64,000 bases of DNA from positions 9,951 through 73,950 of the forward strand of contig DATHPP010000425.1 in NCBI GenBank assembly GCA_035483795.1, given 5' to 3'. The stretch comes from Tepidisphaeraceae bacterium (lineage in GTDB: Bacteria > Planctomycetota > Phycisphaerae > Tepidisphaerales > Tepidisphaeraceae). Below the pieces are notes generated by a model that worked only from the letters and a program-made list of their open reading frames with translations, was not told the origin of the DNA and searched no databases. Position 1 is the first letter of the stretch. Each line of letters starts with the position of its first letter. Shown in pieces: positions 1 to 49,458 of this stretch. A program made the position numbers and the translations under genes.

Positions 1-1044
1 CAGCACCGGACAGGCCGGCAAGCCGTTCTGAGCCCGGTCGAAATTGGCGTCCAGCAGCACCGTCAGCGCCGTCGGACCCATCGGCGACCCCTCCGGCCCC
101 CGCGGAAAGAGAAACTTGCGGCTGTCTTGAGACAGGATCACCGCCGCGACGCCAAAAATATTCGCGGCCTCTTGGGCGAGCTTGCCGTCCTGCTCGATCC
201 CTATGACCTCTTTGAATCCCGCCAGCAATGCCGTCTTGAGGTTGCGCCCTTTGCCGCAGCCGGTTTCGATGAAGGTGTCGGCCAGGAGGGATGAAAGCTC
301 GCGGTCGAAGCGCAGGCGCGCATCTACACTGCGCCATTTGCCCCCTTTGGACCAGTCGATTTCCGCCCAGCCGTCCTCGCCCTCGAACAGCGGGATGCCT
401 ACATCGCGGGCGAACTGCGCCGCCGATTTGCGGTTGTGCAGCGAGATGGGATGCTTGCGGTGCGTCTCCCACCAGGCCGGGCCGTGATCCTCGTGGTAGA
501 CCAGGCGGCGTGAGATGCCGCCGCGATCGGGGGCGTGACTGTCGCGCTCGATCAGCTTGGTCAGACAGGCGTCGAAGGCTTCGGCGGCGATCAGGAAATC
601 CGGCACCTCGCGATGGACTCTGCGCCACCAGTGCGGCCGGAAGGCGATCAAGTCCGTGCCTGCGGTCGGATCGTCGAAAGCGAACACATAGGACGGGGGG
701 ACGTTGCTGGCGTCGACGACGTTGATCCGCCCGGAATAACAGGCGTCGTTCTTGCCCTCCGCCATCGTCTGGCGCACCGCTTCGTAGGCGTCGGGAACCA
801 GGCAGGCGTCGCAGTTGGTCCAGACAACGATCGTTTCCTCGGGTTCGCCCCAGCAGCCATAATCGAAGATGTCTTTCAGGTAGGGAACGCGGCGGGCATC
901 GTCGCCGAAGGCGCGCCGTGGCGCGATCGGCTTGAGCGTCACCCGTTCTTCGTTGCCCCAGGTCTTGACCGCGTTGTCGTTGCGGCGCCGCTCATCGTCG
1001 CTCTTGGGGGAGTGCTCATGGAAGATGTGAACGATTCGTTCCAC
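1..1044 (-). CDS. glycosyltransferase-like / SAM-methyltransferase-like fusion protein, C-terminus beyond left edge
   Basis: Not in the ORF track because it has no stop inside the window. My translation from GTG at 1044 stays open to position 1: VERIVHIFHEH...IVVWTNCDACLVPDAYEAV..., then ...ADTFIETGCGKGRNLKTALLAGFKEVIGIEQD (glycine-rich SAM motif I). The start abuts the stop of the upstream gene at 1047. Confidence 0.5.
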   Translation of the reverse strand, partial: MERIVHIFHEHSPKSDDERRRNDNAVKTWGNEERVTLKPIAPRRAFGDDARRVPYLKDIFDYGCWGEPEETIVVWTNCDACLVPDAYEAVRQTMAEGKNDACYSGRINVVDASNVPPSYVFAFDDPTAGTDLIAFRPHWWRRVHREVPDFLIAAEAFDACLTKLIERDSHAPDRGGISRRLVYHEDHGPAWWETHRKHPISLHNRKSAAQFARDVGIPLFEGEDGWAEIDWSKGGKWRSVDARLRFDRELSSLLADTFIETGCGKGRNLKTALLAGFKEVIGIEQDGKLAQEAANIFGVAAVILSQDSRKFLFPRGPEGSPMGPTALTVLLDANFDRAQNGLPACPVL

Positions 1045-1046
1045 GG

Positions 1047-2330
1047 CTATTCGTTCCATACATCGACCCCGTACTGCTGGCGCAACAACTCGATCGCCCG
1101 CTCGCCGTGGAAGCCGAAGGTCAGCCGGCGATCCTCCGGCCAGGGGTGCGGCGGCGGCTGATGACACTCGAAGCTGAACCGCGCCGCCACCGTCACCGGG
1201 GCAAAGCGAATTCCCGCCGCCTCCATCGTGGTACGGCAGAACACGCAACTGAACCAGTCCTCGCAGTGCTCAGCCGGCGGGACCGGCGTGTCGGGATGCT
1301 CCATGCGCCCGTAGCCGAGTTTCGCTGTCTCCTGAAGGAACCTGCGGCTGCGCAGGGAGAAGCCGCCGTTACCGACGATCCATTGATCCTGCCAGTGCCA
1401 CGGACTGCCGACGTAATCGTAGTCGAGGAACGCCCGGCTCCAGGTCGAGGGATTCCGCGCGAAGCCGTCGCTCTGCACGATCAGGCAGTGCGGCGCGTCG
1501 ATGAAGCGGTGCAGCTCCTCGAGAACGAAGCGGGAATAGTCGTAGACGCTGGCGAACGGCTCGATCTTCACATAGGCGGCATCGACGGGCAGCGCCTTCG
1601 GGCGCCGCGGGGCAAGGAACATCACCTTATCGACCTGGCAGTGCCGCAGGGTGCGATTGACCGCGGCGCAGCCCTGCTCGGGATGATTGGTGTCGATGCA
1701 AACCAGCGTGACCCCGCTCAGGTCGGCCTTGGGGCTGTCCCATCCGCCGGGCCGCAGTTCATCGGGATCGCGCAGGATTCCCGCCGGCCGCTCGCCCAAA
1801 TCGACCCCCAGCGTCAAGAGGGCGCGGCGCAGGCTGGAATAGTCGTAGATGATCTGCTCGTAGGTGAGCAGGAGCCAGGGTAGGGGAGGAGGGGGAGAAG
1901 GGGAGAGGGGACGAGGGGAGGATGGGGACTCGACAAATTCGCTGATTCGGCGCAGGGCCGAGGCGAGGTTGGCCAGTCCCTCCGATTTGTCCTGAACGTA
2001 CTGGCGGCGCAACTGCGACTGCACCGTCGATTCGCCTGACCGCAGAAGCACCAATAGCGCGACGGCGTATCCCGCCGCTTCCAGCTCGCCACGCAGCACG
2101 GGTAAATCCGGCCAGCCGCGCTGGTCGCCCACGCCGTAGGGCAGGCTGCGCTTAACGACGATCTGCCGGCCCATCTCCGAGAGCGGAACATCATGGCGCG
2201 GGTCGCCGGTGTTCCACGACTGCCAGCCAGCCGCTTCCAGGAGACGGTTCAAGAGCGTCGAGCCGCTGCCCTCGGGACAGACGATCAGCAGTGCCCGTTT
2301 AGTTGCGCCCGCAAAATGTTCTGTATCCAT
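1047..2330 (-). CDS. two-domain protein: P-loop sulfotransferase-like N-terminus plus DUF5672-like C-terminus
   Basis: The N-terminus LLIVCPEGSGSTLLNRL resembles a PAPS-binding loop. The C-terminus has IVGNGGFSLRSRRF, which I recall as typical of DUF5672 glycan-enzyme-like proteins. The two halves are joined by SPSSPRPLSPSPPPPLP, encoded by a G-run repeat (1877-1928). Confidence 0.55.
   Translation of the reverse strand: MDTEHFAGATKRALLIVCPEGSGSTLLNRLLEAAGWQSWNTGDPRHDVPLSEMGRQIVVKRSLPYGVGDQRGWPDLPVLRGELEAAGYAVALLVLLRSGESTVQSQLRRQYVQDKSEGLANLASALRRISEFVESPSSPRPLSPSPPPPLPWLLLTYEQIIYDYSSLRRALLTLGVDLGERPAGILRDPDELRPGGWDSPKADLSGVTLVCIDTNHPEQGCAAVNRTLRHCQVDKVMFLAPRRPKALPVDAAYVKIEPFASVYDYSRFVLEELHRFIDAPHCLIVQSDGFARNPSTWSRAFLDYDYVGSPWHWQDQWIVGNGGFSLRSRRFLQETAKLGYGRMEHPDTPVPPAEHCEDWFSCVFCRTTMEAAGIRFAPVTVAARFSFECHQPPPHPWPEDRRLTFGFHGERAIELLRQQYGVDVWNE
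1877..1928. repeat. G-run element (family A) lying in frame inside a CDS
   Basis: Plus strand reads gggtaggggaggagggggagaaggggagaggggacgaggggaggatgggg. Related copies are at 17911, 18954, 27001, 36108, 54644 and 55349. Confidence 0.7.
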
Positions 2331-3358
2331 GCGAATCCGCCGGGTTGGGCGGCTTCCTCGTAGGTCAGTCTCTCGATCCAGTGCGGGTATCTTCGCGAGG
2401 CGCGGAGCGGGTCATCCAGCACCAGCGCGATGGTGGGGACCTGCGTCACCCGGCCCAGGTGCAGGATGCCGTTGTCGCTGGCGACCAGAACCCCCCCAGA
2501 CTCCGTCGCGCGCTCGAACAAACCCAGCAGATCATACATCCGCGGGGCCCGGAACGAGCCCAGGTCGAGCCACAGCAGCGCGGGGAACTGTTTCTGGAGA
2601 AAGGCAAATAGGGCCTCACCGCGGGCGAATCCGGCGGGCCGGCCGGCGCTGCGGAAGTGGGTGCAATTGAACAGGGCCAGGGGAAGGGGAGACGCGGGGG
2701 CGTATTTTTCCACGATCTGCCGCTCCTCGGGATCGCGGCATTCGTGTACGTCCAGCGGCAAGGTGTCGATGAACGACAGCGGGCAGCCGGTCCGGTCCCA
2801 TTGCACGGTGATGAAATCGCGCAGGTCGCGGCGGTCCCAGGCGTTGGTGGTGATCCGCACCTCGTCGAAGCGGCCGAACTCGCCCTCGACGGCGCGGTGG
2901 AAAAGCGGCATCGGGCCGCCGGTCCAGTCGCAGACGACTTGCTTCATCCACGCGAAGCGCTCGCACATCTGCACATAAGGCTCATCCACCAGCAGCGTGA
3001 TGCGGCGGTGGGCCTGTTCGGTGAGCCAGCGAAATGCGGGGATCAGCGTCAGCAGGTCGCCGGCCCGCCCGGGCTGGAGAATCGCAGTCTTGACCGTGGC
3101 AACCTCTTCGCCGCAGCAGCCTTTGCTCCCCGGTGGAGATGGGGCAGGCGGCGCCGGCCAGCTCCAGGAATCTTCGCCGGTGTCCTCGAGCGCTCGGGCG
3201 GCCGCGTCGTATTTGCCCTTGGGGCATTGGCCGCTTTGGGCGTGGATCGTCAGATCGATGCCATCGACCGTGCAGGCGCAGGCTCCGAAGCAGGGGCGCT
3301 GGGCGAATGGGCAGGTGTGGCAGAGGGACAGGCGATCGTCTTCGGTCTGGGACTTCAT
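2285..3358 (-). CDS. GT9 (heptosyltransferase)-like glycosyltransferase with Cys-rich N-terminus
   Basis: KTAILQPGRAGDLLTLIPAFRWL matches the N-terminal signature of family 9 glycosyltransferases. The N-terminus is cysteine-rich (CHTCPF..CFGACAC..CPKG). The gene overlaps the next one by 46 nt, so the start of the downstream gene is uncertain. Confidence 0.6.
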   Translation of the reverse strand: MKSQTEDDRLSLCHTCPFAQRPCFGACACTVDGIDLTIHAQSGQCPKGKYDAAARALEDTGEDSWSWPAPPAPSPPGSKGCCGEEVATVKTAILQPGRAGDLLTLIPAFRWLTEQAHRRITLLVDEPYVQMCERFAWMKQVVCDWTGGPMPLFHRAVEGEFGRFDEVRITTNAWDRRDLRDFITVQWDRTGCPLSFIDTLPLDVHECRDPEERQIVEKYAPASPLPLALFNCTHFRSAGRPAGFARGEALFAFLQKQFPALLWLDLGSFRAPRMYDLLGLFERATESGGVLVASDNGILHLGRVTQVPTIALVLDDPLRASRRYPHWIERLTYEEAAQPGGFAWIQNILRAQLNGHC

Positions 3359-3364
3359 CGCGTA

Positions 3365-4156
3365 CTAGGCGTCCGTCACCACGAATTTACCGCCGAAGAA
3401 GCCGCCGGGCGGAATCGAGAAGCCGCCAAAACCGCCGAAGTTGTCGTTGGGTCCGGTCGGCGGATTATTGGAGACAGCGACGATCGAACCGCCGCAGGGC
3501 AGGGGAGGCCCCAAGGTCATGTAAGGAATGAACGGGGCACCGCTGCCGCCGTAATCTTCGCCAGCGACGATCGCGCCCTGACCGTTGCCGTTGAGCACAG
3601 GAGGAATCCCAATGAGCGGCGCGGCCGGGTTGGTCAGATAGACGATCAGACCGGTGAATCCATCAAAGTCGGGCGATGGCGGAACGATCACCAGCTCAAA
3701 GTGGAGCACTGAGCAGTGGAACTGGAGCACGCCGGAGCATCCGAGCCCGACCCATTGGTCCGATGAAGCCGGGATGTCCAAACCGTAGTAACAAGCGACG
3801 GTGGTGCCGAAGCTGCGATATTGTGCCCGCAGGGTGAGCGTGAAGGTGCCGTTGACGGGTACGGAATTGAAGCGGTAGGAGAAAAGACCGCCGAAGACCG
3901 TCCAGCAGGTTCCCAAGGCTGCGGCAATGTTGACATTGCTGATGGTCAGCGTCTTGGTTGTCTTGTAGCTCCCGGTGCTGCCCGAGCCGCCGATCGAGGG
4001 ACAGTTGCAACAGCAGGGGCACGGTGAGTTGGACGGCGGCAGCGGGCCGGGCGTGAAGGGATAATCGCCCAGCCCCGGATTGCCAGGCACCGTCGCGCCC
4101 AGATAGAGCGCGCCTTTGCTGCCGAACAACCAGCCATCTGCGCCGAACAGGGCCAT
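3365..4156 (-). CDS. hypothetical Gly/Pro-rich protein with CPCCCNCP cluster (probable virion/tail protein)
   Basis: 263-aa ORF in operon orientation, distal to the tail genes, with a beta-rich composition. No motif recognised. Confidence 0.5.
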   Translation of the reverse strand: MALFGADGWLFGSKGALYLGATVPGNPGLGDYPFTPGPLPPSNSPCPCCCNCPSIGGSGSTGSYKTTKTLTISNVNIAAALGTCWTVFGGLFSYRFNSVPVNGTFTLTLRAQYRSFGTTVACYYGLDIPASSDQWVGLGCSGVLQFHCSVLHFELVIVPPSPDFDGFTGLIVYLTNPAAPLIGIPPVLNGNGQGAIVAGEDYGGSGAPFIPYMTLGPPLPCGGSIVAVSNNPPTGPNDNFGGFGGFSIPPGGFFGGKFVVTDA

Positions 4157-4207
4157 GGGAGAGAAGAAGACACGGGGACGGGGAGACGCGGGGACGCGGA
4201 GAAGGGA
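4157..4207. repeat. octamer-array element (family B) at a gene junction
   Basis: gggagagaagaagacacggggacggggagacgcggggacgcggagaaggg fills the gap between the stop at 4208 and the start at 4156. It is built from NNGACRCG-type units. Confidence 0.65.
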
Positions 4208-4960
4208 TCATGAGGATGGCGGGACGCAGGATCCGACATCAATGACCTCGTTCGTAATCAGCAGGTGGGGTTTGAACATATTGGCTTGGGAATCCGGGTA
4301 ATACAGCCCGCGCGTCCCCAGGCCGGCGTCGCTGACATGGCCGGGAAAGCGCCAATCGACCGGCACGTTGTCGGCGATTTTCACCCCGTCAAGCGCCGTG
4401 ATGGTGTAGGTGAGGGTGGCCGCCACCGGCGGAAGGCTGGTTCCGCGCGAGCCCATGGGATTGCTCAAGGTCACTGGCACGCCCAGCCAGAGCTGCTGGC
4501 TTTCGCAGATCACCAGCGGGCGGACGGCGAGCGAGGAGCTGGAGCTGGTCTGCCCCGCCAGGTATCCCCAGACGAAGCGGGTGCCGTTGACGTTGAGATC
4601 ATGGCCCATGGGGGCGAAATCGTTCTCGTTGATGTTGGCGATCCAGCAGTCGTCGCTGGTGTTGACGTCCTGAAACAGGTTCTCCAGCTTCATGTCCTGC
4701 GCCGGATCGATGCCGTTGCCGTTGTTGAGCGTTTGCTGTCGGCCCCCGTAAAATCCCCGTCCGCAGCCGGCGCTGGAGGTGATGCGGGCGACGGTCGGAT
4801 TGAAGACATCCGATGAGACCGAGCGCGCTTGCCGCTGTTGCATGATGCGGATGCGCTGTCCGTCGTTGACCACGCCGTCGCCGGAGATGGTCGAGACGGT
4901 CTGGCGCAGATCGCGCAACCACTGGATATCCGCGGCGGTGAGATAGTAGCGGTCGGGCAT
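4208..4960 (-). CDS. hypothetical tail-module protein
   Basis: 250-aa ORF in operon orientation, downstream of the tape-measure and distal-tail positions. No motif recognised. Confidence 0.5.
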   Translation of the reverse strand: MPDRYYLTAADIQWLRDLRQTVSTISGDGVVNDGQRIRIMQQRQARSVSSDVFNPTVARITSSAGCGRGFYGGRQQTLNNGNGIDPAQDMKLENLFQDVNTSDDCWIANINENDFAPMGHDLNVNGTRFVWGYLAGQTSSSSSLAVRPLVICESQQLWLGVPVTLSNPMGSRGTSLPPVAATLTYTITALDGVKIADNVPVDWRFPGHVSDAGLGTRGLYYPDSQANMFKPHLLITNEVIDVGSCVPPSS

Positions 4961-5910: not shown

Positions 5911-6966
5911 TCATAACAGATTCGCATACGGGATCGGCTTCAAGCGCCGCCAGTGTCCGACATAAATCTGGCCGGTAGGGACCGATGGAGCCTGGAGCGT
6001 TTCCCAGAAGAAGTCCGGCCCTTCCACCATCGGCGTCGGATTGGCGACGGGAGTAGCGAGCTGGTGCCCGACCTTGAAGCTGGCGGTATCCAACGGGAGT
6101 CCCGTCTTGTCGAGATAAACGATCGCTTCCGTGACTCTGGTCGGCGGCTGCTCGCCCACGTAATAAAACGGGGCCATCTGCGGGGTGGGGGCCTCTGTGT
6201 CGGGCGTCATCGATTGTGCGGGCGTCGATGGTTGGAACCAACCGACCGAGCCCTTGTTGATTTCCCGAACGTCCCAGGCATCGCTCAATCCATCCGGTCC
6301 GGTAGCGCTGAACGTGGGTCGGATTTCAAAGGTCCATCTGACTTTCACGAAATACGCCTGTAGCGAGTATTCGCCGATCGGCACGATGTTTTTAACCCGC
6401 GCCTGTCCGGGCTGCACCGCCGCGTTCATCACCTTGCCCTTGATCACGAAGTTGTCTTTATTCATCGTCCCCATCAGCCGGGTTGCCGCCGCCGGATCGT
6501 AAAACGGCTGGTAGCGCGTGTAGACGAGGTTCATCGTCGGCAGATCGGTCTGCGCCGGCGGATCGTAAGGTTGTCCTGCCGCGGTCTGCACCGGCGTACC
6601 CTGGATGGTGTGGCTGAAATCGACGCTCTGAAGCGCCGGCTCCCAAGCCATCATGGGCGGCTGACTCAGAGGATCGGCGCTGGCTGGCGCTTCGCCGCCA
6701 TCAGGGACGCCGTATTCAGCGTGAACCCGGTAGACGGAGTAGAGGGATTTGTCGGCGCTGATGCTCAGACAGCGCAGGGTCGAGGAGAGATTGTGGGGTG
6801 CGTTGTAATCCACCGCGAACTGCGCCGAGCAGGCCGCGATCGCGTCCACCTCGTCGACGGCGTAGGCCACGTCGAACTCGCGGTGGGCGGTCCACTTGAG
6901 CAGGTCGACGTTGAAGTTGAGCCGCTGGTTTTCCCAGCGCTCGCTGGCTTGGGCGATGGTGGACAT
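5911..6966 (-). CDS. hypothetical tail protein (distal-tail position)
   Basis: 351-aa ORF immediately downstream of the tape-measure-like gene. The call rests on position only. Confidence 0.55.
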   Translation of the reverse strand: MSTIAQASERWENQRLNFNVDLLKWTAHREFDVAYAVDEVDAIAACSAQFAVDYNAPHNLSSTLRCLSISADKSLYSVYRVHAEYGVPDGGEAPASADPLSQPPMMAWEPALQSVDFSHTIQGTPVQTAAGQPYDPPAQTDLPTMNLVYTRYQPFYDPAAATRLMGTMNKDNFVIKGKVMNAAVQPGQARVKNIVPIGEYSLQAYFVKVRWTFEIRPTFSATGPDGLSDAWDVREINKGSVGWFQPSTPAQSMTPDTEAPTPQMAPFYYVGEQPPTRVTEAIVYLDKTGLPLDTASFKVGHQLATPVANPTPMVEGPDFFWETLQAPSVPTGQIYVGHWRRLKPIPYANLL

Positions 6967-6976
6967 GGGAGTTGAG

Positions 6977-8593
6977 TCAAAGACCGGCTGGAGCCATTGC
7001 GTCTTTGAGGAATTGACGGGCCATTTCGATCAGATGCTGGAGGTGGGTATTGGAGGCGTTCTGGGCGTCGAGCTGCTTTTGCCAGATGGCGCGTGCCGTC
7101 TGTTCCGCCTGCCGGGCATTGGCGGCAAACGCTTCCCGCCCTGCATCCTGGCCGAATTTCAATTCCGGCGACTGGGCAAATGGTGAGCTGAACGGCCCGA
7201 ATTCCGGCATGCCGGCCCGCGCGATCGCGGCCTTTTCGACGCCGACCGTCGCATCCCGCGCCGCCTCGATTTGCTTGCGTTCATCAGCGGTGAGGTCCTG
7301 GCCCTCGCGGAGCAGCTTGTTGAACTCCTCGCGTTTTTCGTTGAACTTCTCGTGAATCTCCAGGATCGTCGCCGCCTTCTTGGCCTGATTGCTGCCCAAC
7401 TCCGCTTCCTCGTGCAACATTTCCAGGCCGGCTGACATCACGGCTCGTCGGCGCTCCTCGCGCTCATCCTGAATCTGGTTCTGGTGTTCGATCGTGGCTC
7501 GGTGATCGGCTTCTGTTTTCTGCGCATCAATGGCCTTCTGGGTTTGATCGTGCTGCCGATAAGCGCGCTCCCTTTCGGCGGCATCGTTGAGGGGAGGCTG
7601 GCCCGCGTCCTTTCGCTTCTGGGCCTCGTCGCGGATGCGATTCAGATCGTCATTGAGCTTCAAGTCGGCGCGGCGTTTTTCTTCCTCGTATTGATTATCG
7701 CGCAGCACCTGCTCGGCCTCGAAACTTTCGTTCAACCCGTGCAGTTCTTCGGCGTCAGCTTCGGCGGCAAGACGCCTCAGCTTTATTTCATGCTCGGCGT
7801 CGTCGGACTCCAATCGCTCGTTGTGCGCGGCGTTGCGGTCGCGCTCCTCACGGCGAAATTTATCGTGGATGTTCTCTATCTCAATCTGCGCAGCCTTGGT
7901 GGTATCCTCGATCGCGGAATCCTTCTGGGCGATGACCCCTTTCTCCAACTCGGTCGGATTGAAGTGGTGTTTCTTGTATTCTTCAAGTTCCTTCCGCAGG
8001 TCCGCGATGCGATCGGCTGCCGCCCGCGCCGCGTTTCCGACCGCCGCCCCCTCCGCGCTCATACCCGGTCGTTGCTGAGCCCGCGCCTCCGCCAGTTCAT
8101 TCAGGGCCGATCGCTGCTCGTGATAGGCGCGGGTGGTTTCTTCCAGCTTCTCGTGCAGATATTTCAGGGTGCCGGCGTCCGAGCGGGCGCGGTCGATCAC
8201 CTTGTCTGAAGCGCCGGCCTCTTTGAGTTGTTCTGCGTGCAAGTCTTTGTAAGCATCGACGACCCGATCGAGGGCACCGACCAGCGGGTCGATTGACGAC
8301 ACCACATCAAGCATGCCTTGAACCTTGGCCTTGTGCAGGTCTTCGGCATCCGTCGCCTCCGAGACTCTTTCCGTGTAGGCCCGCATCCCCTCTGCCGCTC
8401 GATTCAACCCTTCGGCCAAAAGGGCGACCACAATCCCGGCACCGCCGAGCTTCAAGCCATGCTCCAGCAGGCGCGCTCCTCCACGGCTTTCGTGGATAAA
8501 GTTTTCCAGCTTTTCCTTTGCCGACTTATAAGCCTCGGCAGTCATGTCCTTTGCGCGGAGCCAGAAAGTGATTTGTTCGGTGCGCTCGGCCAT
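6977..8593 (-). CDS. tape-measure-like coiled-coil protein
   Basis: 538 aa, extremely E/K/A/R-rich and helical (…KELEEYKKHHFNPTELEKG…). It has a hydrophobic segment GGAGIVVALLAEGL near the N-terminus and sits downstream of the tube/chaperone genes. Confidence 0.55.
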   Translation of the reverse strand: MAERTEQITFWLRAKDMTAEAYKSAKEKLENFIHESRGGARLLEHGLKLGGAGIVVALLAEGLNRAAEGMRAYTERVSEATDAEDLHKAKVQGMLDVVSSIDPLVGALDRVVDAYKDLHAEQLKEAGASDKVIDRARSDAGTLKYLHEKLEETTRAYHEQRSALNELAEARAQQRPGMSAEGAAVGNAARAAADRIADLRKELEEYKKHHFNPTELEKGVIAQKDSAIEDTTKAAQIEIENIHDKFRREERDRNAAHNERLESDDAEHEIKLRRLAAEADAEELHGLNESFEAEQVLRDNQYEEEKRRADLKLNDDLNRIRDEAQKRKDAGQPPLNDAAERERAYRQHDQTQKAIDAQKTEADHRATIEHQNQIQDEREERRRAVMSAGLEMLHEEAELGSNQAKKAATILEIHEKFNEKREEFNKLLREGQDLTADERKQIEAARDATVGVEKAAIARAGMPEFGPFSSPFAQSPELKFGQDAGREAFAANARQAEQTARAIWQKQLDAQNASNTHLQHLIEMARQFLKDAMAPAGL

Positions 8594-8666
8594 GGGGAGA
8601 TTCGTAAAGGGGTTGCGTGGTCGCTAGGGTATCGCGGTACGGGGGAACATTTCGGGAGTCCCGCCC

Positions 8667-40737: not shown

Positions 40738-40830
40738 ATGCACTCCTTCAAAAATGGAGAGGGAGAACGAACTGCGACCCGGCAACGCGCCGAGTCCATG
40801 CACCGCCGTTTTCAAGAGCTGGTGGGGGAG

Positions 40831-40949
40831 GTCACTCGTCATTGGTCACTGGTCATTTGTTTAGGGTTCCCATCCGCGATCAATCGCGGATGGGAGGCCC
40901 TTGGGCGCGCGGCCCTGGCAAGTGACCAGTGACAAGTGACAAATGACCA
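40831..40949. repeat. inverted heptamer-array element (family C), copy 4, with nested hairpin
   Basis: GTCACTC GTCATTG GTCACTG GTCATTT, an inner hairpin cccatccgcgatcaatcgcggatggg, the spacer gggcgcgcggccctgg shared with copy 2, then caagtgaccagtgacaagtgacaaatgaccag. Confidence 0.8.
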
Positions 40950-41199
40950 GGGGGTTAAAGCGTCGACCGGAGTTTCCTCCGATCGAGCGCTGAAAACGGC
41001 GGACGACTAACGCGCCCAAGCGTCCACCGTTCGTTTCACAAGGGAGCCAATTTAATTTACAGGAGGGATGGTCCCGGCCGGCTTCCACGGGCTCGTTATC
41101 ACCGGCAGAATCGTTTCGATTCCGGCTGCACTGCTGGCCATTTAAGGCCCGACTTGCGTTGCATTTACGGGCTTTCACCGTCAGAACCACCATGTCCTG

Positions 41200-42432: not shown

Positions 42433-42581
42433 AGCGAGTTTTCCTTGAAAAAGTTGTTAGAATGGCGGCGTCAGTCGCCAGGTTCACGATCCACAATTCA
42501 CGCCGTCCCTCGCCGCGAGAAGTCTTTCTGGCGATTGACCTCGCGCGGGGGCGGCGCTGCGCCGGACAGGAAGAAAACAAA

Positions 42582-43370
42582 TTGAAGCCCCTCATCAAAC
42601 TTGGCGATCATTTCGGGCGCTTGACCGTCGCGGAATCTCTCGGCTCCAAGCTCATGAACGGCAAACGGCGCAGTCTGTGGCGTTGCACTTGCGAATGCGG
42701 TGGAGAAGCGACGACCATCACGGCATCTCTGAGAAACGGAACAACGCGGAGTTGCGGATGCCTGCGTGGTTCAGCCCATTTCAAACGGGCGACGAATCAA
42801 AATGACGAGGTGCTTCCGACGAAGGATTTGCGCGGCAAGGTCTTCGGGCGACTTCGGGTCATGAAGTTCGATGGCTATCGAAGATTTAAAGGGGGCCAAA
42901 ATAGACCAAACGGCGCTTCGCGCGGAATGTGGCTCTGTCAATGCGAATGTGGAAACACCACGATTGTCGAAACGTCGTCGCTGACCACGGGGAACGCTAA
43001 AAGCTGCGGATGCCTCCAGCGCCATCGGGCTTCGGAAGCCAAAACGGGGACGATTCCCAAATCCCGCCTGCGTCTCGGCGAATCGGAAATGCGAAGAACC
43101 TTCCGAAACTGCCGTCGCACCGCCTTAAAGAAGGGCTTTGCATTCGAGTTGGACGTAGAAACGTTTCACCGGATCACACGGTCGAATTGTCATTACTGTG
43201 GCGCGGAACCCGCTGGCTTTAGTAAAACCGGAAGGGCTTTCGGACCTTACGTCCACAACGGCATCGATCGCGTGAACAATAATCTCGGCTATCTCATGTC
43301 CAATTGCGTCCGGCCAAACGTCACATGGATGTCTCCACTTTTCTACGCTGGGCGCGGGCCGTCACGATGA
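42582..43370 (+). CDS. HNH homing-endonuclease-like protein with disrupted C-terminal catalytic motif (possible pseudogene)
   Basis: From TTG 42582: KPLIKLGDHFGRLTV..., two LW(R/L)C(T/Q)CECGxxxxxxxxxLxxGxxxSCGC modules, then CHYCGAEP...NGIDRVNNNLGYLMSNCV. The expected CCxxCNxxK block is absent here. A typical tail, AKRHMDVSTFLRWARAV, continues in another frame. Confidence 0.5.
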   Translation: MKPLIKLGDHFGRLTVAESLGSKLMNGKRRSLWRCTCECGGEATTITASLRNGTTRSCGCLRGSAHFKRATNQNDEVLPTKDLRGKVFGRLRVMKFDGYRRFKGGQNRPNGASRGMWLCQCECGNTTIVETSSLTTGNAKSCGCLQRHRASEAKTGTIPKSRLRLGESEMRRTFRNCRRTALKKGFAFELDVETFHRITRSNCHYCGAEPAGFSKTGRAFGPYVHNGIDRVNNNLGYLMSNCVRPNVTWMSPLFYAGRGPSR

Positions 43371-44318: not shown

Positions 44319-44677
44319 CTTGCCACGGCGATCAGGCTCACTTTGAACGCCGCCCAGCGCGTTGGCTCAAGTGTGTAGGTGTTCTGGGCCTTGATCGATT
44401 CATGGGCGACAATGAAATTGTGCAGCAGTTGTTTGAGATTCTTCGGCCCGTCCGGCGTGTCGATCCAGGTATATTCGGGGACCGGCGTCGAGGTGCCATC
44501 GGGATGCAAGTTGACCGCATAGACACCAGCGCGGTGATAGCTCGAATAGGCCGCCGATGATGATGACATGCCGAAGCTCGCGCATTGAACGTCGTAGGGG
44601 CCGCTGCTCGTCCACTGAACGTCATAGGGGCGGCTACTCGCCATCGCAACGTCGTAGGGGCGGCTCGAAACCATCAC
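44288..44677 (-). CDS. hypothetical protein with 3x SSRPYDV tandem repeat and YTLEPTRWA motif
   Basis: The N-terminus is encoded by three ~30-nt tandem units (44586-44675). The C-terminal AQNTYTLEPTRWAAFK matches KQSYTLEPTRWARFK in 58583..59245. Confidence 0.5.
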   Translation of the reverse strand: MMVSSRPYDVAMASSRPYDVQWTSSGPYDVQCASFGMSSSSAAYSSYHRAGVYAVNLHPDGTSTPVPEYTWIDTPDGPKNLKQLLHNFIVAHESIKAQNTYTLEPTRWAAFKVSLIAVARWIFGRGKAL

Positions 44678-45297
44678 GCCTTCCGGGTAAGAGTCGCGAT
44701 CGTATCCATCGCTGCCCCTTTGTAATTCGCCAACGCGAACTGCTGGTAGTCCTGGTTCCGCACGATCAGGTCCGGGCGCATCGAGTAGCCCCAGGTCGCA
44801 TCGAAGTCGCAGTTGAACCCACCGGGAAGGACTTCGGCGTCGCTATGCGGGGCGTTGGCCCGGCGCCATTCGCGGTTCAAATAAAAATACCAGAATTCAC
44901 TCAGGGGGGGCCACTGATGGGTTGGGTCTCCATAGGCGCGTTCACTGCACCAGTGCGGGGTGATGATCTGGCACTTGCCGCCGGGGACGAGAATCCGGTA
45001 CAGCTCGTTGACGAAGCCGCAGCGCTGCATCGCCGTCAGGTGCTCCAGAAAATGACTGGCATGCGCTTCGGCGACCGAGGCGTCTTTCCACGGCCAGGGG
45101 ATGATCGTCAGATCGACCACTTGATCCACGCCGACGAAGGGATGGCGATCGCATCCGGTGAAGCCCTCGCGCTTGTGGGGACCGCAGCCGAAGTCCAATT
45201 TGAGCAGCGGCGCAGCGGCGACGGCGGGAATCGCGGGCGCAATCGGCGGCGCAATACTTGGCGCAATCGGGGCCGGGCGGCGTTTGGATTTCACCAC
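44674..45297 (-). CDS. class I SAM methyltransferase
   Basis: LKLDFGCGPHKREGF (motif I), SHFLEHL and LVPGG. Confidence 0.7.
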   Translation of the reverse strand: MVKSKRRPAPIAPSIAPPIAPAIPAVAAAPLLKLDFGCGPHKREGFTGCDRHPFVGVDQVVDLTIIPWPWKDASVAEAHASHFLEHLTAMQRCGFVNELYRILVPGGKCQIITPHWCSERAYGDPTHQWPPLSEFWYFYLNREWRRANAPHSDAEVLPGGFNCDFDATWGYSMRPDLIVRNQDYQQFALANYKGAAMDTIATLTRKA

Positions 45298-46049
45298 ATC
45301 ATGTCCGTGTTGGAATCAAAATGCCCGACGAGAACGCCGCAATCGACGGCGCATCTATACCCGTACTTCCGCGCTTCCCCCCAGAACGCCAGATCCTGGG
45401 TTCCGACACCTTCCTTGCTCGCCAGCGTTTTGAACCACGGCCTGCGGAGACGAGCGTCTTTGAACATGGGCAAGCGCCAGAGCGCGAATCCCATCGATAA
45501 TCCGCAGCACTCGACCAGCTCGCCGGGGCGAGGCGGCTGGGGCCGGAAGTTCACCACCGGATCGTTCACGTCGCCCCAAATGTGCGGAGTCCCGACGCCG
45601 CCCGGCAGTCCGCCCCCTTCCCCCTTACACCAGTACAACCCGGAGATCGCCGCCAGTTCGGGATGCTCCTCCATCCGCGCCACCAGCTTCAAAACCCCAT
45701 CTGACGGCGGGGCGTTATCGTGCTCCATCGTCAAGAGGTATTCCCACTGGCTCAGTTCCGGATGGGCCAGGATGTCTTCGATGGCCTTGGAATACGCCTG
45801 TCCGACTTCCTCTCCCAGCGCCAGGTGTCGATGCACGCCCTGATTCGGGGGAAAGATGAGGGAGCAGTGGGAGAGGTACACCCGTGAAGGAATCGATTCG
45901 GCCGCCGGGATGATGACCGCGATTCGCTGTTTCTTCCACGTCCCTCCGCGCAGGACACGCTGGGTCGAGGCCGCCAGATCGCCGTTGTGACGGCCGGCCT
46001 GGGCGGGGTCGATGGCATCGATGACGGCGTTTTGCAGGCGGGGTTTCAT
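45291..46049 (-). CDS. GT-A (family 2-like) glycosyltransferase
   Basis: RIAVIIPAAES..., LLTMEHDN and GTQDLAFWGEARKYGYRCAVDCGVLVGH follow the GT2-like layout. Confidence 0.6.
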   Translation of the reverse strand: MKPRLQNAVIDAIDPAQAGRHNGDLAASTQRVLRGGTWKKQRIAVIIPAAESIPSRVYLSHCSLIFPPNQGVHRHLALGEEVGQAYSKAIEDILAHPELSQWEYLLTMEHDNAPPSDGVLKLVARMEEHPELAAISGLYWCKGEGGGLPGGVGTPHIWGDVNDPVVNFRPQPPRPGELVECCGLSMGFALWRLPMFKDARLRRPWFKTLASKEGVGTQDLAFWGEARKYGYRCAVDCGVLVGHFDSNTDMMW

Positions 46050-47203
46050 CAGGGATGGGTGATGAGGAAGATCGTCGCGGTGCCTTTGGGTCCTCCGACT
46101 TTGACCATTCCGAACGACCGATTCGGCCGCGTGCGGTACAGTTCCCAGCGCGTTTCCGGGGCATACATATGCTGGGCGAGGGCGAGACCCTGTGACATGA
46201 TGGCCAAGGGATCAGCCAGGCCCGGCTGACCCGGATAGCCCACAGACCCAGAAAATCCGTAAAGACGATGATCCGAGATCAGACCCAGAAACGGCGACGA
46301 CACTCCGTCATCATCGGACCCGATGAACTGATATACCGCGTTGATCGCAGCTTTTCCCGCATTCTGCGGCGATCCTACGTTGGCTTGACTTTTGGATATG
46401 CCGAACGGCTGTAGCTGGCCGCCGCCCTGGACATCGTTACCGCTGACCGGGCCGAGTTGGCCATCGACGAGGATCACTTGCCACGAATTGTTGTAGCCGC
46501 CCGATCCCGACGTAGAGAACGGCATGTAAAGACCACAGATCAGATGCCACTGGCCATCGTTGACTACTTGGCAGCTTTGCACTCCAAACGGAATAGCGCC
46601 GCCCTCGTTGTTGTCAAACATCGTGGCCGCAGCGTTGGCGGTGTTGACGCCGGAACCATCATAAATCTGCATGATAACGCCCATCGTGTGGCCGGGATAA
46701 CCGGAGTTGTCGTTGCGATCGAAGGAATAGATATATGTGTCATGCGGCGTGTCACCAGCGGTGAAGGTGAGCGCTGAGTCGCTGGTGCGTATCCAAGCCG
46801 TCGCCATGTAGGCTTGGCCAAGCACGACGGTATCGGGGATTCCTCCGAAATCCACCGGGTCAACTGAGGTCGCAGATTGATAAGCGTAGGGCCGCGACTG
46901 AGATTGGCCAGAGAATATCCCCGCCATCCCCGCAGGATTGGGAATGCCAAACCAACACGTTCCCATCTGAGGATCGCCGGCGTGAAGCGTGTTCACACTC
47001 GGTGTCATGTGCAGGCCATAAGGTCCGTAGTCCATCGCACACGGAGCCTTGGCCGCGTTGGACATCGGCTCCCAGATCGGCCACCAAGCGTACAGATTTT
47101 TCGCCTGGAAGCTGTCCTGATTTATGCCGACAAACTCGTCGCGGGAAGGGCGCTGATCCATCCCCTCTGAGAGGCCGACGAACTTTTTCATCAGCGGCGT
47201 CAT
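46049..47203 (-). CDS. LamG/concanavalin-A-like lectin-fold protein
   Basis: From ATG 47203 (MTPLMKKF...). …VVNDGQWHLICGLY…WQVILVDGQL… is typical of Laminin_G_3-type jelly rolls. The track N-terminus (to 47572) overlaps another gene and was rejected. Confidence 0.55.
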   Translation of the reverse strand: MTPLMKKFVGLSEGMDQRPSRDEFVGINQDSFQAKNLYAWWPIWEPMSNAAKAPCAMDYGPYGLHMTPSVNTLHAGDPQMGTCWFGIPNPAGMAGIFSGQSQSRPYAYQSATSVDPVDFGGIPDTVVLGQAYMATAWIRTSDSALTFTAGDTPHDTYIYSFDRNDNSGYPGHTMGVIMQIYDGSGVNTANAAATMFDNNEGGAIPFGVQSCQVVNDGQWHLICGLYMPFSTSGSGGYNNSWQVILVDGQLGPVSGNDVQGGGQLQPFGISKSQANVGSPQNAGKAAINAVYQFIGSDDDGVSSPFLGLISDHRLYGFSGSVGYPGQPGLADPLAIMSQGLALAQHMYAPETRWELYRTRPNRSFGMVKVGGPKGTATIFLITHP

Positions 47204-47207
47204 GTGG

Positions 47208-47594
47208 TTACTGGTTGATGATCGCGGTCGTGACTTCCTGAGTCTGAACCTGTACCGTCCACGTCGCAACTGACCCGCCACCGGACAACACTTGTACGGC
47301 GTACTGCCCTGTCTCAAGCCGAAGACTGACCTGCTGCAAACCGCCTGACTGGCGTGGCAATCCCAGAGGTTGAAGCGGCTGCGTATCGAAGGTGTTTCCG
47401 CCGTCTGTCGAGCGATAAGCGAAGACTTGCGGTCCGGCCGAAACGTTGGTGGGGAACTGAACGATGATCGGGATCTTGATCTGCCACGCCTGCGTGATGT
47501 TGACGGTGAATGTGAAGGACGAAGATTGCCCGATGCCGATGCCGGCTTGAATCGTCGCGGTCCAGGTTTCAACAGGTGTTGCGACGGTGCTCAT
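47208..47594 (-). CDS. small beta-sandwich protein with Asp-box
   Basis: FAYRSTDGGNTFDTQP is an SxDxGxT[WF] Asp-box. 128 aa. It overlaps the upstream glycosyltransferase by 4 nt. Confidence 0.55.
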   Translation of the reverse strand: MSTVATPVETWTATIQAGIGIGQSSSFTFTVNITQAWQIKIPIIVQFPTNVSAGPQVFAYRSTDGGNTFDTQPLQPLGLPRQSGGLQQVSLRLETGQYAVQVLSGGGSVATWTVQVQTQEVTTAIINQ

Positions 47595-48268
47595 CTATAC
47601 CCCACTGCCATCTCTGGCTCTTGAAGTTCCACCACATCCGGGTCGTAGTCGGCCAGCGATAGCGCCCGCATTTGCAGGTGATGGCACTCGACGCGCATGG
47701 CGCAGACGGCCTTGATCTTCAGTTTCTTCAGACGCAGGAAAAACGAGTGGTCTTCACCGTAGCCGGAAATACGGGAGAACGGCTGCTCTTTCAATTCATC
47801 CTCGATTCGCTCGAACACGCTCCGCTTGACCCACAGACACCCGGCCCCGGCGGAATCGACCTCCAGGACCTCGACCGACTCATCCCATGCCCCAACCGGA
47901 TGAAGCCCTTCGCCCTGCAATCGGAAAACCACCGGAGAGTGCGGCGGGTCTTTGTACTGGTAGACGGCGGTGACGACTTCCGCCCCGGTGCGATCCGCCA
48001 CGTTGAGCAGCCGGTAAGCGATGTCCGGGTCGAAAGCATGGTCCGTGTCAAGCATCAGCAGCCAATCGCCCCGCATGTTGTCGGCCATGATGTTGCGGGC
48101 AACGTCGTGGATGCTCACACGCGGCGGTCGCGGGTAGTGGATGCACTCACCGGGCAGGCAGAGGTATTGCGCGTTCCACTGGATCAGGTCGGCAAAGGAA
48201 TCGACGAACGGGGAGAGAACGGCAGGCGTTCCGCCCATTCTTGCCACCGTGCCGATGTATTTGTTCAT
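47591..48268 (-). CDS. GT-A (family 2-like) glycosyltransferase
   Basis: From ATG 48268 (MNKYIGTVARMGG...). WLLMLDTDHAF is a DxD-type motif and GYGEDHSFFLRLKK follows. The start overlaps the upstream stop as TGATG. Confidence 0.65.
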   Translation of the reverse strand: MNKYIGTVARMGGTPAVLSPFVDSFADLIQWNAQYLCLPGECIHYPRPPRVSIHDVARNIMADNMRGDWLLMLDTDHAFDPDIAYRLLNVADRTGAEVVTAVYQYKDPPHSPVVFRLQGEGLHPVGAWDESVEVLEVDSAGAGCLWVKRSVFERIEDELKEQPFSRISGYGEDHSFFLRLKKLKIKAVCAMRVECHHLQMRALSLADYDPDVVELQEPEMAVGYR

Positions 48269-49458
48269 CAGGAGCACGCGACTTCCTCCATCACTTCCGC
48301 CCACTGCTCGTACTGGTCCACGATCCGCTCCCAATCGAACTTCGCGCGAGCCCATTCCATCATGGGTCCGCGTATCTGTTCTTGCAGCGACAGATCGCTC
48401 GTCAGCCTGCGGATTTCATGGACGTACTGAGCCATCACCAGCGGCTCGTTGGCGGGATCGCCGTTGATGAAGATGCCGTGCCGCACGTTGTCAGCCAGCG
48501 CCCAGAGCGGATTGGTGATGGGGATTGCCCCGCACGCCTGGGCAGACATGCAGGTAATGCAGGATGTCTCGGTAAACGTCGTCGGATAGACCCAAAGCCC
48601 CGCCGACAGGAACTCGCGGTCGAGCTGCGTCTGCCCGATTCGCCCCAGCCACGTCACGCCCGGCTGTTCCAGTCCCGGCCCGCATTCGGCTTCGACGTTC
48701 TGCCAGTATTTGCCCTGGTCGTCTATCTCGACTGGCGGCTTTGTCCTGTCGCCGCACGCCCTACGGACGGCCCAATACTTTTTCTTGCACTTCTTGATGT
48801 TGTCCCATCCGTAGGCAACGGTGAGGGACAGTCGCGGCTCGAACTCGCGGGCACGCCGGAAGATTTTCAGGAGGGACGGGAGGCCGCGGTCGGGGCTGCT
48901 AGAGTAGATGAGTTTGAAGGGGTCACGTCCTATCTGTTTGATCCCCTCGATTCTCTCGACGTTGATCCCATTGCTCGACAGGTGAATCTTGCCTTCAAGC
49001 GTCGGCGACCTCTGTACCAAATACTCCGCCTGCGCCTTGCACAATGCGAGACATCGATCCAGCTTCGTAATCCGTTCGGCTGAAATGCCCTGCGGATTGT
49101 CCTTCCATCCGCTCGCGAAAAACTGATCTGGATAGCACACATCCTGACAGACAAGCCACGTCGTCTGCTCGGGATGGTCCACGGGGAAGTTATCCAGTGC
49201 AGACGGGCAACGTGACAAAACCCACACGCCGGGAGCGGCAAAGTCGGCGGCTTCAAGCGGAAGCCAGCGGGCGTTGCCGTCGTATTCGGGGCAGTTGTCG
49301 CGGAGCGGGGCGTAGACCGTGACGACGTGCCCGCGAGCGGCAAGACGACGGGCCATCTCGACAACCGAAGTCTCAGAGCCGCCTATCCCCGGATTCTCCG
49401 GGCTGCGGTGGTCCCACTTCTCAAAGTGGATCGGGCAGTAGAAATAAAAGGTGCGCAT
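48268..49458 (-). CDS. GT4-type (GT-B) glycosyltransferase
   Basis: From ATG 49458: MRTFYFYCPIHFEKW...GIGGSETSVVEMARRLAARGHVVTVY, and C-terminal TFTETSCITCMSAQACGAIPIT. The start overlaps the fibre gene's stop codon. Confidence 0.75.
   Translation of the reverse strand: MRTFYFYCPIHFEKWDHRSPENPGIGGSETSVVEMARRLAARGHVVTVYAPLRDNCPEYDGNARWLPLEAADFAAPGVWVLSRCPSALDNFPVDHPEQTTWLVCQDVCYPDQFFASGWKDNPQGISAERITKLDRCLALCKAQAEYLVQRSPTLEGKIHLSSNGINVERIEGIKQIGRDPFKLIYSSSPDRGLPSLLKIFRRAREFEPRLSLTVAYGWDNIKKCKKKYWAVRRACGDRTKPPVEIDDQGKYWQNVEAECGPGLEQPGVTWLGRIGQTQLDREFLSAGLWVYPTTFTETSCITCMSAQACGAIPITNPLWALADNVRHGIFINGDPANEPLVMAQYVHEIRRLTSDLSLQEQIRGPMMEWARAKFDWERIVDQYEQWAEVMEEVACS

Follow-up and report, generated by a model that had tools for sequence, protein, structure and literature searches.

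Glycosyltransferase and methyltransferase gene islands in the late operon of an uncultured lambda-like siphophage may serve virion glycosylation

Introduction

To our knowledge, mycobacteriophages are the only phages for which experiments have shown that phage-encoded enzymes glycosylate the virion; there, the modification changes antibody recognition. In the chlorovirus PBCV-1 (A064R) and in the fibrils of Mimivirus, structural proteins receive their methylated glycans in the cytoplasm, from soluble viral glycosyltransferases (GTs) and a methyltransferase (MT) domain. In bacteria, the O-glycosylation loci of serine-rich-repeat adhesins (GtfA/B of family GT4 plus an extending GT-A enzyme) and of flagellin (Maf) prime and extend glycans before export or assembly. 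The Cluster O mycobacteriophage Corndog has genes for an O-methyltransferase, two GTs and a GlcNAc-transferase between its portal and protease genes; these enzymes are made during infection, are not part of the virion, and are suspected of modifying the capsid (PMC4351075). An earlier study reportedly found glycans on the capsid and tail-tube subunits of mycobacteriophages (Freeman et al., 2023, as cited in PMC12619734). In this work, we found that a 64,000-nucleotide (nt) stretch of DNA (positions 9,951 to 73,950 of contig DATHPP010000425.1, assembly GCA_035483795.1; hereafter the window), which is the late operon of an uncultured lambda-like siphophage of ~121 kb, carries islands of GT and MT genes among its head, fibre and tail genes. 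With a probability of roughly 0.55, these islands serve virion glycosylation and the particle is coated with methylated glycans. Judged by their distribution among phages, the islands are made up of several portable cassettes that are independent of each other and do not form one pathway.

The likeness to PBCV-1 and Mimivirus lies in a cytoplasmic logic that involves no host secretory machinery; these are eukaryotic viruses with unrelated enzymes, and the comparison is an analogy only. As in the adhesin and flagellin loci, a Ser/Thr-rich repeat protein is encoded beside a cytoplasmic GT4 and a GT-A enzyme, whereas the window has no accessory Sec system and we found no specific sequence similarity to those loci. 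The window phage resembles Corndog in that GT and O-methyltransferase genes are embedded in a siphophage structural operon, that the portal-protease junction is also the place of island B (see below), and that structural proteins are the presumed targets. It differs in host phylum and in scale, with at least 10-13 such genes over four junctions compared with four genes in Corndog. Unlike the mycobacteriophage systems, the window cassette brings its own Ser/Thr-rich fibre and small proteins, and not C-terminal tails on capsid and tail tube.

The cyanomyovirus S-SCSM2R encodes 13 GTs, which have been read as host cell-wall modification (PMC12801897). The original prediction, made from the window sequence alone, knew of no tailed-phage system of such scale; in number this does not hold because of S-SCSM2R, and it does hold for glyco-genes within a lambda-like morphogenesis operon. 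The window phage has a comparable or smaller number of GTs than large cyanomyoviruses (S-SCSM2R, S-SCSM1, and P-SSM2). Unlike the window phage, these are T4-like myoviruses, exceed 190 kb, and carry genes for nucleotide-sugar and lipopolysaccharide (LPS)/3-deoxy-D-manno-octulosonate (KDO) synthesis, and no GT genes are interspersed among their head and tail genes.

The 42.6-kb uncultured podovirus MW202524.1 (Manatee Spring) has four products annotated as GTs or named after them and two methyltransferases right after its major capsid gene. As in the window, homologous GT4, GT-A ("has synthase") and methyltransferase genes follow the head genes in the same order. Likewise, ~35 IMG/VR contigs with a GT4(-MT)-GT2 cassette share the unit of GT4, GT2 and small Ser/Thr-rich protein. 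In contrast to the four islands of the window, MW202524.1 and these contigs carry two to six such genes, on unrelated backbones with different portal families. We found no published analysis of these un- or auto-annotated metagenomic genomes, and no paper on the GT4-GT2 cassette or on Planctomycetota phages with such islands. The window most likely shows a larger version of a strategy already seen in a few phages; what stands out is the extreme expansion, an explicit candidate acceptor, and the fact that portable glycosylation cassettes can be recognized in other uncultured phages.

Scale of the late operon and comparison with compact relatives

Among the 81 open reading frames (ORFs) called in the window (G+C 60-65%), 71 are on the minus strand. 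The 64 same-strand junctions are tight: 13 overlap by 4 nt, three overlap by 1 nt, and 48 have a gap of at most 20 nt. The operon extends over 63.5 kb, with the terminase first and its 3' end 209 nt past the left edge of the window. The prediction of a lambda-type late operon with co-oriented GT and MT genes among its head, fibre and tail genes is borne out; the claim of shared orientation is correct for most of the listed genes and wrong for 11996-12799, which is on the plus strand.

The window DNA sits on a 121,573-bp JGI metagenome contig (3300050821), and the matching NCBI contig of a metagenome-assembled genome (MAG) was binned as Tepidisphaeraceae. Two shorter ENA contigs also cover the window, and both end within the fibre and portal gene repeats. 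A megablast search of INPHARED (50,697 phage records) with 38 kb of the window gave no nucleotide-level relative, and close relatives of the terminase were absent from the GTDB genomes scanned. Capsid homologues at 55-61% identity were found in metagenomes only, with more distant ones in Planctomycetales ZRK34 and Phycisphaerae MAGs; because of these distant homologues, the host is probably a member of Planctomycetota. The possibility that 1-49458 is host chromosome beside a prophage was rejected, given that backbone phage genes are interleaved throughout and that both operon flanks are phage-like.

The backbone genes recur, compactly arranged, in the relatives L031 and L032, in the IMG/VR contig L071, and in L097 of ZRK34 (CP050848.1), which is a prophage because the ZRK34 genome is complete. 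The terminase-to-gpZ span is ~10.5-12 kb in all three relatives that cover both genes (L031, L032, and L097), and in relatives with 44-57% capsid identity the backbone takes up some 12-20 kb. Window genes that have orthologues in these loci total 19.8 kb, and the remaining ~43 kb is inserted. The insertions lie between terminase and portal (island A), between portal and scaffold (island B, 42.5-53.8 kb), among core genes after the decoration gene (island C, 23.7-35.9 kb), and before the tail genes (island D); the operon end (1-5 kb) is possibly a further insertion site. By this comparison, the virion-assembly operon is ~3 times the usual size, with accessory genes exceeding the backbone by ~2:1. 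The original prediction had proposed to check whether related phages share the island. The compact relatives, with 48-57% capsid identity, lack the islands, which makes the enrichment a true peculiarity of the window phage. Since all-against-all phmmer found no GT or MT paralogy among the window proteins, the expansion did not arise by duplication.

Fibre-linked GT4-GT2 cassette and GT-A-methyltransferase pair in island B

After the portal gene, island B has two small ORFs followed by genes for a fibre, a GT4, a GT2, a 128-amino-acid (aa) protein, a 384-aa LamG protein, and a pair of GT-A and MT:

49458-52970, minus strand: 1170-aa fibre-like protein with a tail-fibre-type N-terminal domain, then 55-aa tandem repeats (165 bp)
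48268-49458, minus strand: GT4-family (GT-B fold) glycosyltransferase, PF13439 Glyco_transf_4 E 1.6e-10; first cassette gene
47591-48277, minus strand: GT2-family (GT-A fold) glycosyltransferase, PF00535 Glycos_transf_2 E 1.4e-6, above the Pfam cutoff
47208-47594, minus strand: 128-aa Ser/Thr-rich low-charge protein (21.9% Ser+Thr, 7% charged); third cassette member
46049-47203, minus strand: 384-aa LamG/concanavalin-A-like jelly-roll protein; AlphaFold2 predicted local distance difference test (pLDDT) 66, predicted TM-score 0.77
44674-46049, minus strand: second cassette, comprising the next two genes
45291-46049, minus strand: GT-A-like 252-aa protein; hhalign to the GT2-cassette family with 93-95% probability, E 3e-7 to 6e-8
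44674-45297, minus strand: class I S-adenosylmethionine (SAM)-MT-like 207-aa protein; Methyltransf_11 E 0.007, LDFGCG motif

The fibre-like protein has a composition of 30.5% Ser+Thr, 9.4% Asn and 3.6% charged residues, with 35 NxS/T sequons, and is a candidate glycan acceptor. Its N-terminal 109 aa are 35-45% identical to annotated tail fibres of Burkholderia, Ralstonia and Pantoea phages and 64% identical to a "tail fiber" of an uncultured phage. The gene is joined to the GT4 gene by a 1-nt overlap on the minus strand, base 49458 being the last of the fibre and the first of the GT4.

The GT4 protein has 632 homologues at E <= 1e-10 and carries the JGI label "protein O-GlcNAc transferase"; its family profile matched only GlgM and BshA in PDB (E ~1e-5). 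A GT4 homologue is directly followed by a GT2 homologue (36-72% identical) in every one of the 35 other phage loci compared, of which 34 are IMG/VR contigs and one is a JGI contig. The ORF after GT2 encodes a Ser/Thr-rich low-charge protein of 115-155 aa in 18 of the 24 loci where it was readable, and it often overlaps the GT2 stop. Compared with other ORFs, the Ser/Thr enrichment at this position gave p = 3e-4, with the caveat that the loci do not count as independent cases. These small proteins form three sequence clusters that profile comparison failed to link. The conservation of enzyme plus Ser/Thr-rich protein composition across 35-75% identity implies selection. The 128-aa protein itself is 75% identical in L033, has homologues in seven loci, and is a possible acceptor or virion protein. 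The cassette lies just downstream of the portal in L033 (60-75% identical, Phage_portal_3) and L038 (phrog_12082), and in another contig it lies between the tape measure gene and a gene for a LamG-containing 1122-aa protein.

Most GT4 homologues (L034-L067 from IMG/VR, P0074-P0191) are fusions of ~540 aa with a C-terminal SAM-methyltransferase domain (PF13489/PF08241). No MT domain is fused to the window GT4; 3 kb downstream, a methyltransferase-like protein is encoded by a gene of its own. In the family of the 128-aa protein, an N-[IL]-T sequon ("TVNIT") is found in six of seven homologues and "NVS" in most; these conserved residues are possibly glycosylation sites or merely structural.

The model of the 384-aa protein matched LamG, carbohydrate-binding module and pentraxin structures of PDB in Foldseek (E ~4e-6), and its top BFVD match is a virion structural protein of the Synechococcus phage S-PM2 (E 3e-9), while phmmer gave no match among PDB sequences. 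On this model, it is a putative virion lectin-like protein. For the downstream pair, the 252-aa protein has a direct Pfam GT2 match at only E 0.085, and the pair recurs in the same order in MW202524, annotated as "has synthase" and "methyltransferase".

Core GT-A gene, its partners and a hint of CMP-sugar chemistry

Three further genes that belong to the backbone or core of the clade were considered:

37403-38014, minus strand: core glycosyltransferase of GT-A type (Nucleotid_trans-like), just downstream of the decoration gene
35942-36631, minus strand: core 229-aa protein; adjoins GT-A homologues in L032, L076, L080-L082, and L091
23174-23716, minus strand: backbone 180-aa protein ("CPGPSL...GVNRA" motif), located in 22741-23716 with a 120-aa protein

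The Nucleotid_trans match of the GT-A protein itself is E 0.02. At the family level, PF03407 was matched by 11 of 22 aligned homologues (best 1.1e-7) and an LDAD motif is invariant. Orthologues follow the capsid and decoration genes in L031, L032, L071 and L078; on this synteny, the gene is part of the clade core. In L077, its neighbors include a TylF-like gene and a Glyco_trans_1_2-like gene, and homologues of 34591-35232 adjoin the core GT-A family in other viral contigs, one of them also with a DUF5672 homologue. The 229-aa family had no Pfam match on its homologues and no PDB match by profile.

Orthologues of the 180-aa protein were found in L031, L032, L071, L078, L090, L091 and L097. In the ZRK34 prophage (L097 13007-14259, CP050848.1), the orthologue lies beside a PF02348 (CTP_transf_3) cytidylyltransferase gene, between the decoration gene and gpZ. 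This neighborhood gives a hint of a transferase dependent on cytidine monophosphate (CMP)-sugars: the 180-aa protein may be such an enzyme, and the pattern suggests that the phage clade uses CMP-sugar chemistry of the nonulosonic acid or KDO type. Its motif is reminiscent of Maf or CstII, a likeness that no sequence-level test supported; the "GPSL" family had no sequence match to Maf or CstII and no PDB profile match. The 180-, 229- and 213-aa families matched nothing in Pfam on homologues, and a single-sequence AlphaFold2 model of 23174-23716 was discarded (pLDDT 42.7).

Islands C and D

Island C holds a second concentration of predicted sugar and methyl enzymes, and a histidine phosphatase is encoded in island D:

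23713-35945, minus strand: island C, 12.2 kb; one ORF (27818-28294) on the plus strand
30082-31167, minus strand: Glyco_trans_1_2 glycosyltransferase, E 5.9e-29
26464-26997, minus strand: TylF-like O-methyltransferase, E 8.9e-16
29480-30085, minus strand: Methyltransf_24, E 9.8e-11
28297-28755, minus strand: Methyltransf_24-type, 24.7 bits vs. a cutoff of 26.3
31810-32424, minus strand: Methyltransf_23-like, 25.9 bits vs. a cutoff of 27
33051-33470, minus strand: DSPc phosphatase, CX5R motif CAGGCNRS
23713-24273, minus strand: weak GT2-like, E 0.0023, below the cutoff; FIDDDD motif
27054-27791, minus strand: weak GT2-like, E 0.09
33717-34574, 34591-35232 and 25353-26123, minus strand: candidates lacking support
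32637-32858: protein with two transmembrane segments; a small helix-turn-helix (HTH) protein is also encoded in island C
21850-22668, minus strand: histidine phosphatase His_Phos_1 of island D, PF00300 E 2.7e-31

The genes of island C have no homologues in the relatives L031 and L032. Weak and scattered matches were found elsewhere: L093 and L095 match 34591-35232, and L077 has fragments matching the TylF-like gene and the Glyco_trans_1_2 gene. The Glyco_trans_1_2 gene has no close relative in the IMG/VR or JGI metagenome contigs scanned. Two motifs seen by eye serve as leads only, a "QCDGDE" DxD in 33717-34574 and "NSDIYFD" in 34591-35232.

Support for the predicted enzymes

The ORFs listed in the original prediction are present at the positions given and mostly on the minus strand. 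The count of at least 11 GT-like ORFs shrinks to five with solid assignments (30082-31167, 48268-49458, 47591-48277, 45291-46049, and, at the family level, 37403-38014). Two others are weak (23713-24273 and 27054-27791), and 1047-2330 has a real DUF5672 domain with GT function unproven. GT calls on 2285-3358, 33717-34574 and the N-terminal part of 1-1044 received no support. None of the four weaker GT candidates has hidden Markov model support; context speaks for 23174-23716, 35942-36631 and 34591-35232, the first two being backbone genes. As for the seven or more SAM-dependent MTs, 26464-26997 and 29480-30085 pass Pfam cutoffs, 28297-28755 and 31810-32424 fall 1-2 bits short, and 44674-45297 is probable, whereas the C-terminal part of 1-1044 has a motif by eye only and 11996-12799 (plus strand) has no match.

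The predicted Cys-based phosphatase (DSPc with CX5R, 33051-33470), histidine phosphatase (His_Phos_1, 21850-22668) and GNAT acetyltransferase (PF00583) were all recovered, the last at 59249-59632, beyond the range originally described. A sulfotransferase-like P-loop domain was not: no called protein has a Sulfotransfer Pfam match, a phosphosulfate-binding (PSB) motif or a Walker A motif, and the suggested sulfation of the glycan is not supported. The supported total is ~10-13 sugar or methyl enzymes in place of more than 20. The idea of one complete pathway is likewise unsupported, in view of at least three to four separately conserved cassettes that occur independently elsewhere and lack paralogy, and of the absence of nucleotide-sugar synthesis, flippase and polymerase genes from the window.

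Negative fold and family results rest on insensitive methods. Neither 2285-3358 nor 33717-34574 matched PDB sequences by phmmer, and NCBIfam gave nothing beyond noise on ten GT/MT ORFs. When all window ORFs were aligned by hhalign with in-house GT2, GT4 and Nucleotid_trans profiles and with Escherichia coli WaaC/F/Q/U (GT9), WaaJ/O (GT8) and WaaG/B (GT4), only 45291-46049 was linked; even the bona fide GT4 missed WaaG/B, so these hhalign negatives mean little. On motifs seen by eye, several unsupported ORFs may still turn out to have GT-A or GT-B folds.

Lambda-type backbone genes

The order of GpA terminase, gpW, gpB-type portal, protease/scaffold, capsid and gpD-like decoration genes is a lambda-like module according to PHROG, Pfam and synteny with L031/L032. 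The backbone features are as follows:

61307-63296, minus strand: large terminase of lambda GpA type, phrog_15 E 6e-41 and 9.7e-86; PF05876, PF20454
59636-59869, minus strand: gpW-like gene inside island A; homologue in L031, 65% identical
53796-57461, minus strand: portal of lambda gpB type, phrog_21 E 5.5e-87
38467-42432, minus strand: backbone head genes, 56-61% identity to L031; the first is a 410-aa gene in the scaffold/protease position
38944-40842, minus strand: capsid-protease fusion, phrog_4523 E 3e-96; PF25209
38467-38826, minus strand: gpD-like decoration protein, phrog_122 E 5e-9; PF09956
5911-18945, minus strand: backbone tail region, tblastn to L031, L032 and L097; broken by plus-strand 8667-11354 and 11996-12799
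18019-18945, minus strand: 308-aa Ser/Thr/Asn-rich protein of the tail region
15979-17904, minus strand: 641-aa protein in the gpU position, with NHL and He_PIG domains in an N-terminal extension
14349-15311, minus strand: tail tube (Phage_tube_2); orthologue carries PF18906
11360-11992, minus strand: gpZ-like, E 1e-4 here with stronger matches in orthologues
within 5911-18945, minus strand: tail proteins of 538 aa and 351 aa

The terminase consists of two ORFs, 62742-63296 (184 aa) and 61307-62737 (476 aa), separated by a 1-nt frameshift. The frameshift (62737-62745) is one extra T in a T-run within the Walker B motif (...RYVFL*/DEVDKF...), and an independent ENA assembly shows the identical 184-aa plus 476-aa split. 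A true inactivating mutation, a programmed frameshift, or a read error common to both assemblies could each explain it. The portals of the orthologous loci L031, L032 and L097 carry PF05136. The window portal aligns with the 754-aa portal of L031 only over aa 96-682 and 831-912; a Gly-rich low-complexity insertion (~aa 683-830) and a 310-aa Pro-rich C-terminal extension are absent from the 656-754-aa portals of the relatives. The extension has repeats of the "PIVNV" type, and one ENA contig stops inside this region of the portal gene.

Among the tail genes, orthologues matched PF06763 and PF18906. A tape measure protein was not identified in the window, the 538-aa ORF at 6977-8593 being a positional candidate only. 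In the 641-aa protein, only aa 483-640 match the 155-162-aa gene that relatives have between gpZ and tail tube (the gpU/tail-terminator position); the N-terminal 480 aa consist of NHL repeats and a He_PIG Ig domain, an extension that is unusual at the gpU position. Zinc-ribbon-like CxxC...CxxC starts were seen in 12796-13122, which is a backbone gene kept in relatives, and in 13614-14327, 24292-24870 and 19376-20404 (weak DnaJ_CXXCXGXG and Stc1 matches).

Island A, operon ends and plus-strand genes

The remaining features lie in the terminase-portal interval and at the 3' end of the operon:

57427-61380, minus strand: island A, terminase-portal interval, with a DNA methyltransferase, a GNAT and four ORFs of no assigned function; the gpW-like gene lies inside
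59866-61380, minus strand: N6/N4 DNA methyltransferase, PF01555 E 6e-32
59249-59632, minus strand: GNAT acetyltransferase, PF00583 E 8e-5
1-4960, minus strand: operon end, with low-charge 250-aa and 263-aa proteins, 2285-3358, 1047-2330 and the last gene
1047-2330, minus strand: DUF5672 protein, PF18922 E 2.2e-19, 70 bits
1059 to -209, minus strand: last operon gene, 422 aa, with a SAM-motif-like C terminus (L029 gene table)

We found no evidence for what the DUF5672 domain does. The C-terminal part of the last gene has an ETGCGKG motif by eye only (Pfam E 0.27). The protein of 2285-3358 is an ORFan that matched only itself among 5.8e9 proteins; the GT9-like motifs seen in it by eye are a lead only. 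Past the operon end lie opposite-strand genes of early type (CsrA, IstB-like, and DUF5131), and upstream of the terminase are small opposite-strand genes (HTH_17, HNH, and DUF3846).

Six blocks of plus-strand ORFs break the minus-strand operon (8667-11354, 11996-12799, 19376-21023, 27818-28294, 36740-37368, and 42462-43370). Within the first block, 8667-9596 has a signal-peptide-like N terminus, and 9915-10118 and 10128-11354 have hydrophobic segments. These blocks resemble morons and may be expressed on their own (e.g., in lysogeny).

Proposed virion glycosylation and alternative explanations

According to the proposed explanation, soluble GTs and SAM-dependent (sugar-type) O-methyltransferases make up a large share of the inserted genes and are grouped in independent cassettes: the block of fibre, GT4, GT2, small Ser/Thr-rich protein and LamG after the portal; the pair of GT-A and methyltransferase; the clade-core GT-A with its 229-aa and 180-aa partners after the decoration gene; and the 12-kb island with Glyco_trans_1_2, TylF/Methyltransf_24-type MTs and the dual-specificity-type (DSP) phosphatase. 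The enzymes would be made late in the cytoplasm alongside the structural proteins and, with host nucleotide sugars and SAM as substrates, would glycosylate virion proteins at Ser/Thr (Asn is a further possibility), either ahead of assembly or in its course. The main acceptors would be the 1170-aa Ser/Thr/Asn-rich fibre and the small Ser/Thr-rich proteins. The TylF/Methyltransf_24-type enzymes may then cap the sugars by SAM-dependent O-methylation, and the outcome would be a glycan-coated particle with effects on shielding, stability or adhesion. No hydrophobic or membrane segment was predicted in any GT or MT of the window, and the window gene tables have no Pfam match to flippase, Wzy, GtrA/B, polymerase, export or lipid-carrier transferase families. 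Between the two targets that the original prediction offered, virion or host envelope, the virion and above all its fibre is the most plausible. A bolder version, which we put forward tentatively and hold to be more doubtful than not, is that this is the most elaborate tailed-phage virion glycan coat yet inferred, with at least three to four "enzyme plus acceptor" modules, and that the GT4(-methyltransferase)-GT2-small Ser/Thr-rich protein set is an undescribed mobile cassette plugged beside portal or fibre genes of many unrelated phages.

Several points weigh against virion glycosylation. Lipid-linked molecules and DNA are further possible substrates of soluble glycosyltransferases. Glycosylation is predicted here from the genes, its acceptors are candidates, and about half of the originally listed ORFs lack statistical support. 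Nucleotide-sugar biosynthesis genes are absent from the window, and compared with relatives the capsid and tail tube have no extra Ser/Thr-rich C-terminal tails. By tblastn against the 50,697 phage records, the GT4, core GT-A and Glyco_trans_1_2 genes had no mycobacteriophage or actinobacteriophage match. Because of the six plus-strand blocks, co-expression from a single transcript is not assured, and terminator and promoter scans were uninformative, with the same counts as shuffles. Finally, the DNA examined comprises the 64-kb window and 16 kb of flanks, with ~41 kb of the contig outside it.

The same observations may be read in other ways. The islands could be heterogeneous morons, that is, unrelated acquired genes without a coordinated role in a virion glycan, many of them maybe inactive passengers. 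The lack of paralogy, the separate occurrence of the cassettes in different phages, the many island ORFs that are ORFans or of no assigned function, and the mixture with a DNA methyltransferase, a GNAT, HTH proteins and phosphatases all fit such an origin, as does the frameshifted terminase if the element is decaying. We nevertheless regard this explanation as unlikely, given that at least 10 sugar or methyl enzymes in 43 kb is a strong functional bias, that packing stays tight (48/64 junctions at <=20 nt), and that the pairing of enzymes with Ser/Thr-rich proteins is kept over 35-75% identity, which implies selection. Remodelling of the host envelope, in which LPS, extracellular polysaccharide or surface glycans are altered during infection or lysogeny (for seroconversion, superinfection exclusion or adsorption), would explain soluble enzymes too, as lipid-linked acceptors at the inner membrane are the substrates of peripheral soluble GT4/GT2 enzymes like WaaG. 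It agrees with the JGI/NCBI label of the homologues ("glycosyltransferase involved in cell wall biosynthesis"), with the exported or membrane plus-strand morons in the operon (8667-9596, 9915-10118, and 10128-11354), and with the usual reading of the many GTs in large cyanomyoviruses, such as the 13 of S-SCSM2R (PMC12801897). However, the window has no polyprenyl-phosphate transferase, flippase, polymerase, ligase, transporter or enzyme membrane segment; the genes are in a late structural operon and not in a lysogeny module; and the cassettes are coupled to fibre, LamG and small Ser/Thr-rich genes across many phages. We consider envelope remodelling quite unlikely.

DNA hypermodification is the least expected of these alternatives and in our view very improbable. 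In this case, the GTs would glycosylate modified bases, as in T4 (glucosyl-hmC) and related systems, and the MTs would modify DNA or the attached sugars to evade restriction. The 64-kb window and the 16 kb of flanks have no hydroxymethylase, thymidylate-synthase-like or base-kinase gene, although such genes could be located in the ~41 kb beyond. The N6/N4 DNA methyltransferase of island A is compatible with DNA modification, and DNA-decorating phage GTs are described as widespread (Pyle et al., 2024, as cited in PMC12619734). In contrast, TylF and Methyltransf_24 are families of small-molecule or sugar O-methyltransferases, the neighbors of the enzyme genes are head, fibre and tail genes and not replication genes, and the coupling to Ser/Thr-rich proteins would be left unexplained.

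Implications

If the islands serve virion glycosylation, the GT4-GT2-Ser/Thr-rich-protein cassette, which is small and portable, could become a tool for phage glyco-engineering. It also gives an annotation rule for hundreds of virome glycosyltransferases labeled "cell wall biosynthesis". The patterns observed suggest that the strategy is modular, horizontally mobile, and scalable until glyco-genes exceed the backbone two to one. They further suggest that virion glycosylation would reach beyond Actinobacteria, to Planctomycetota phages and many uncultured lineages.

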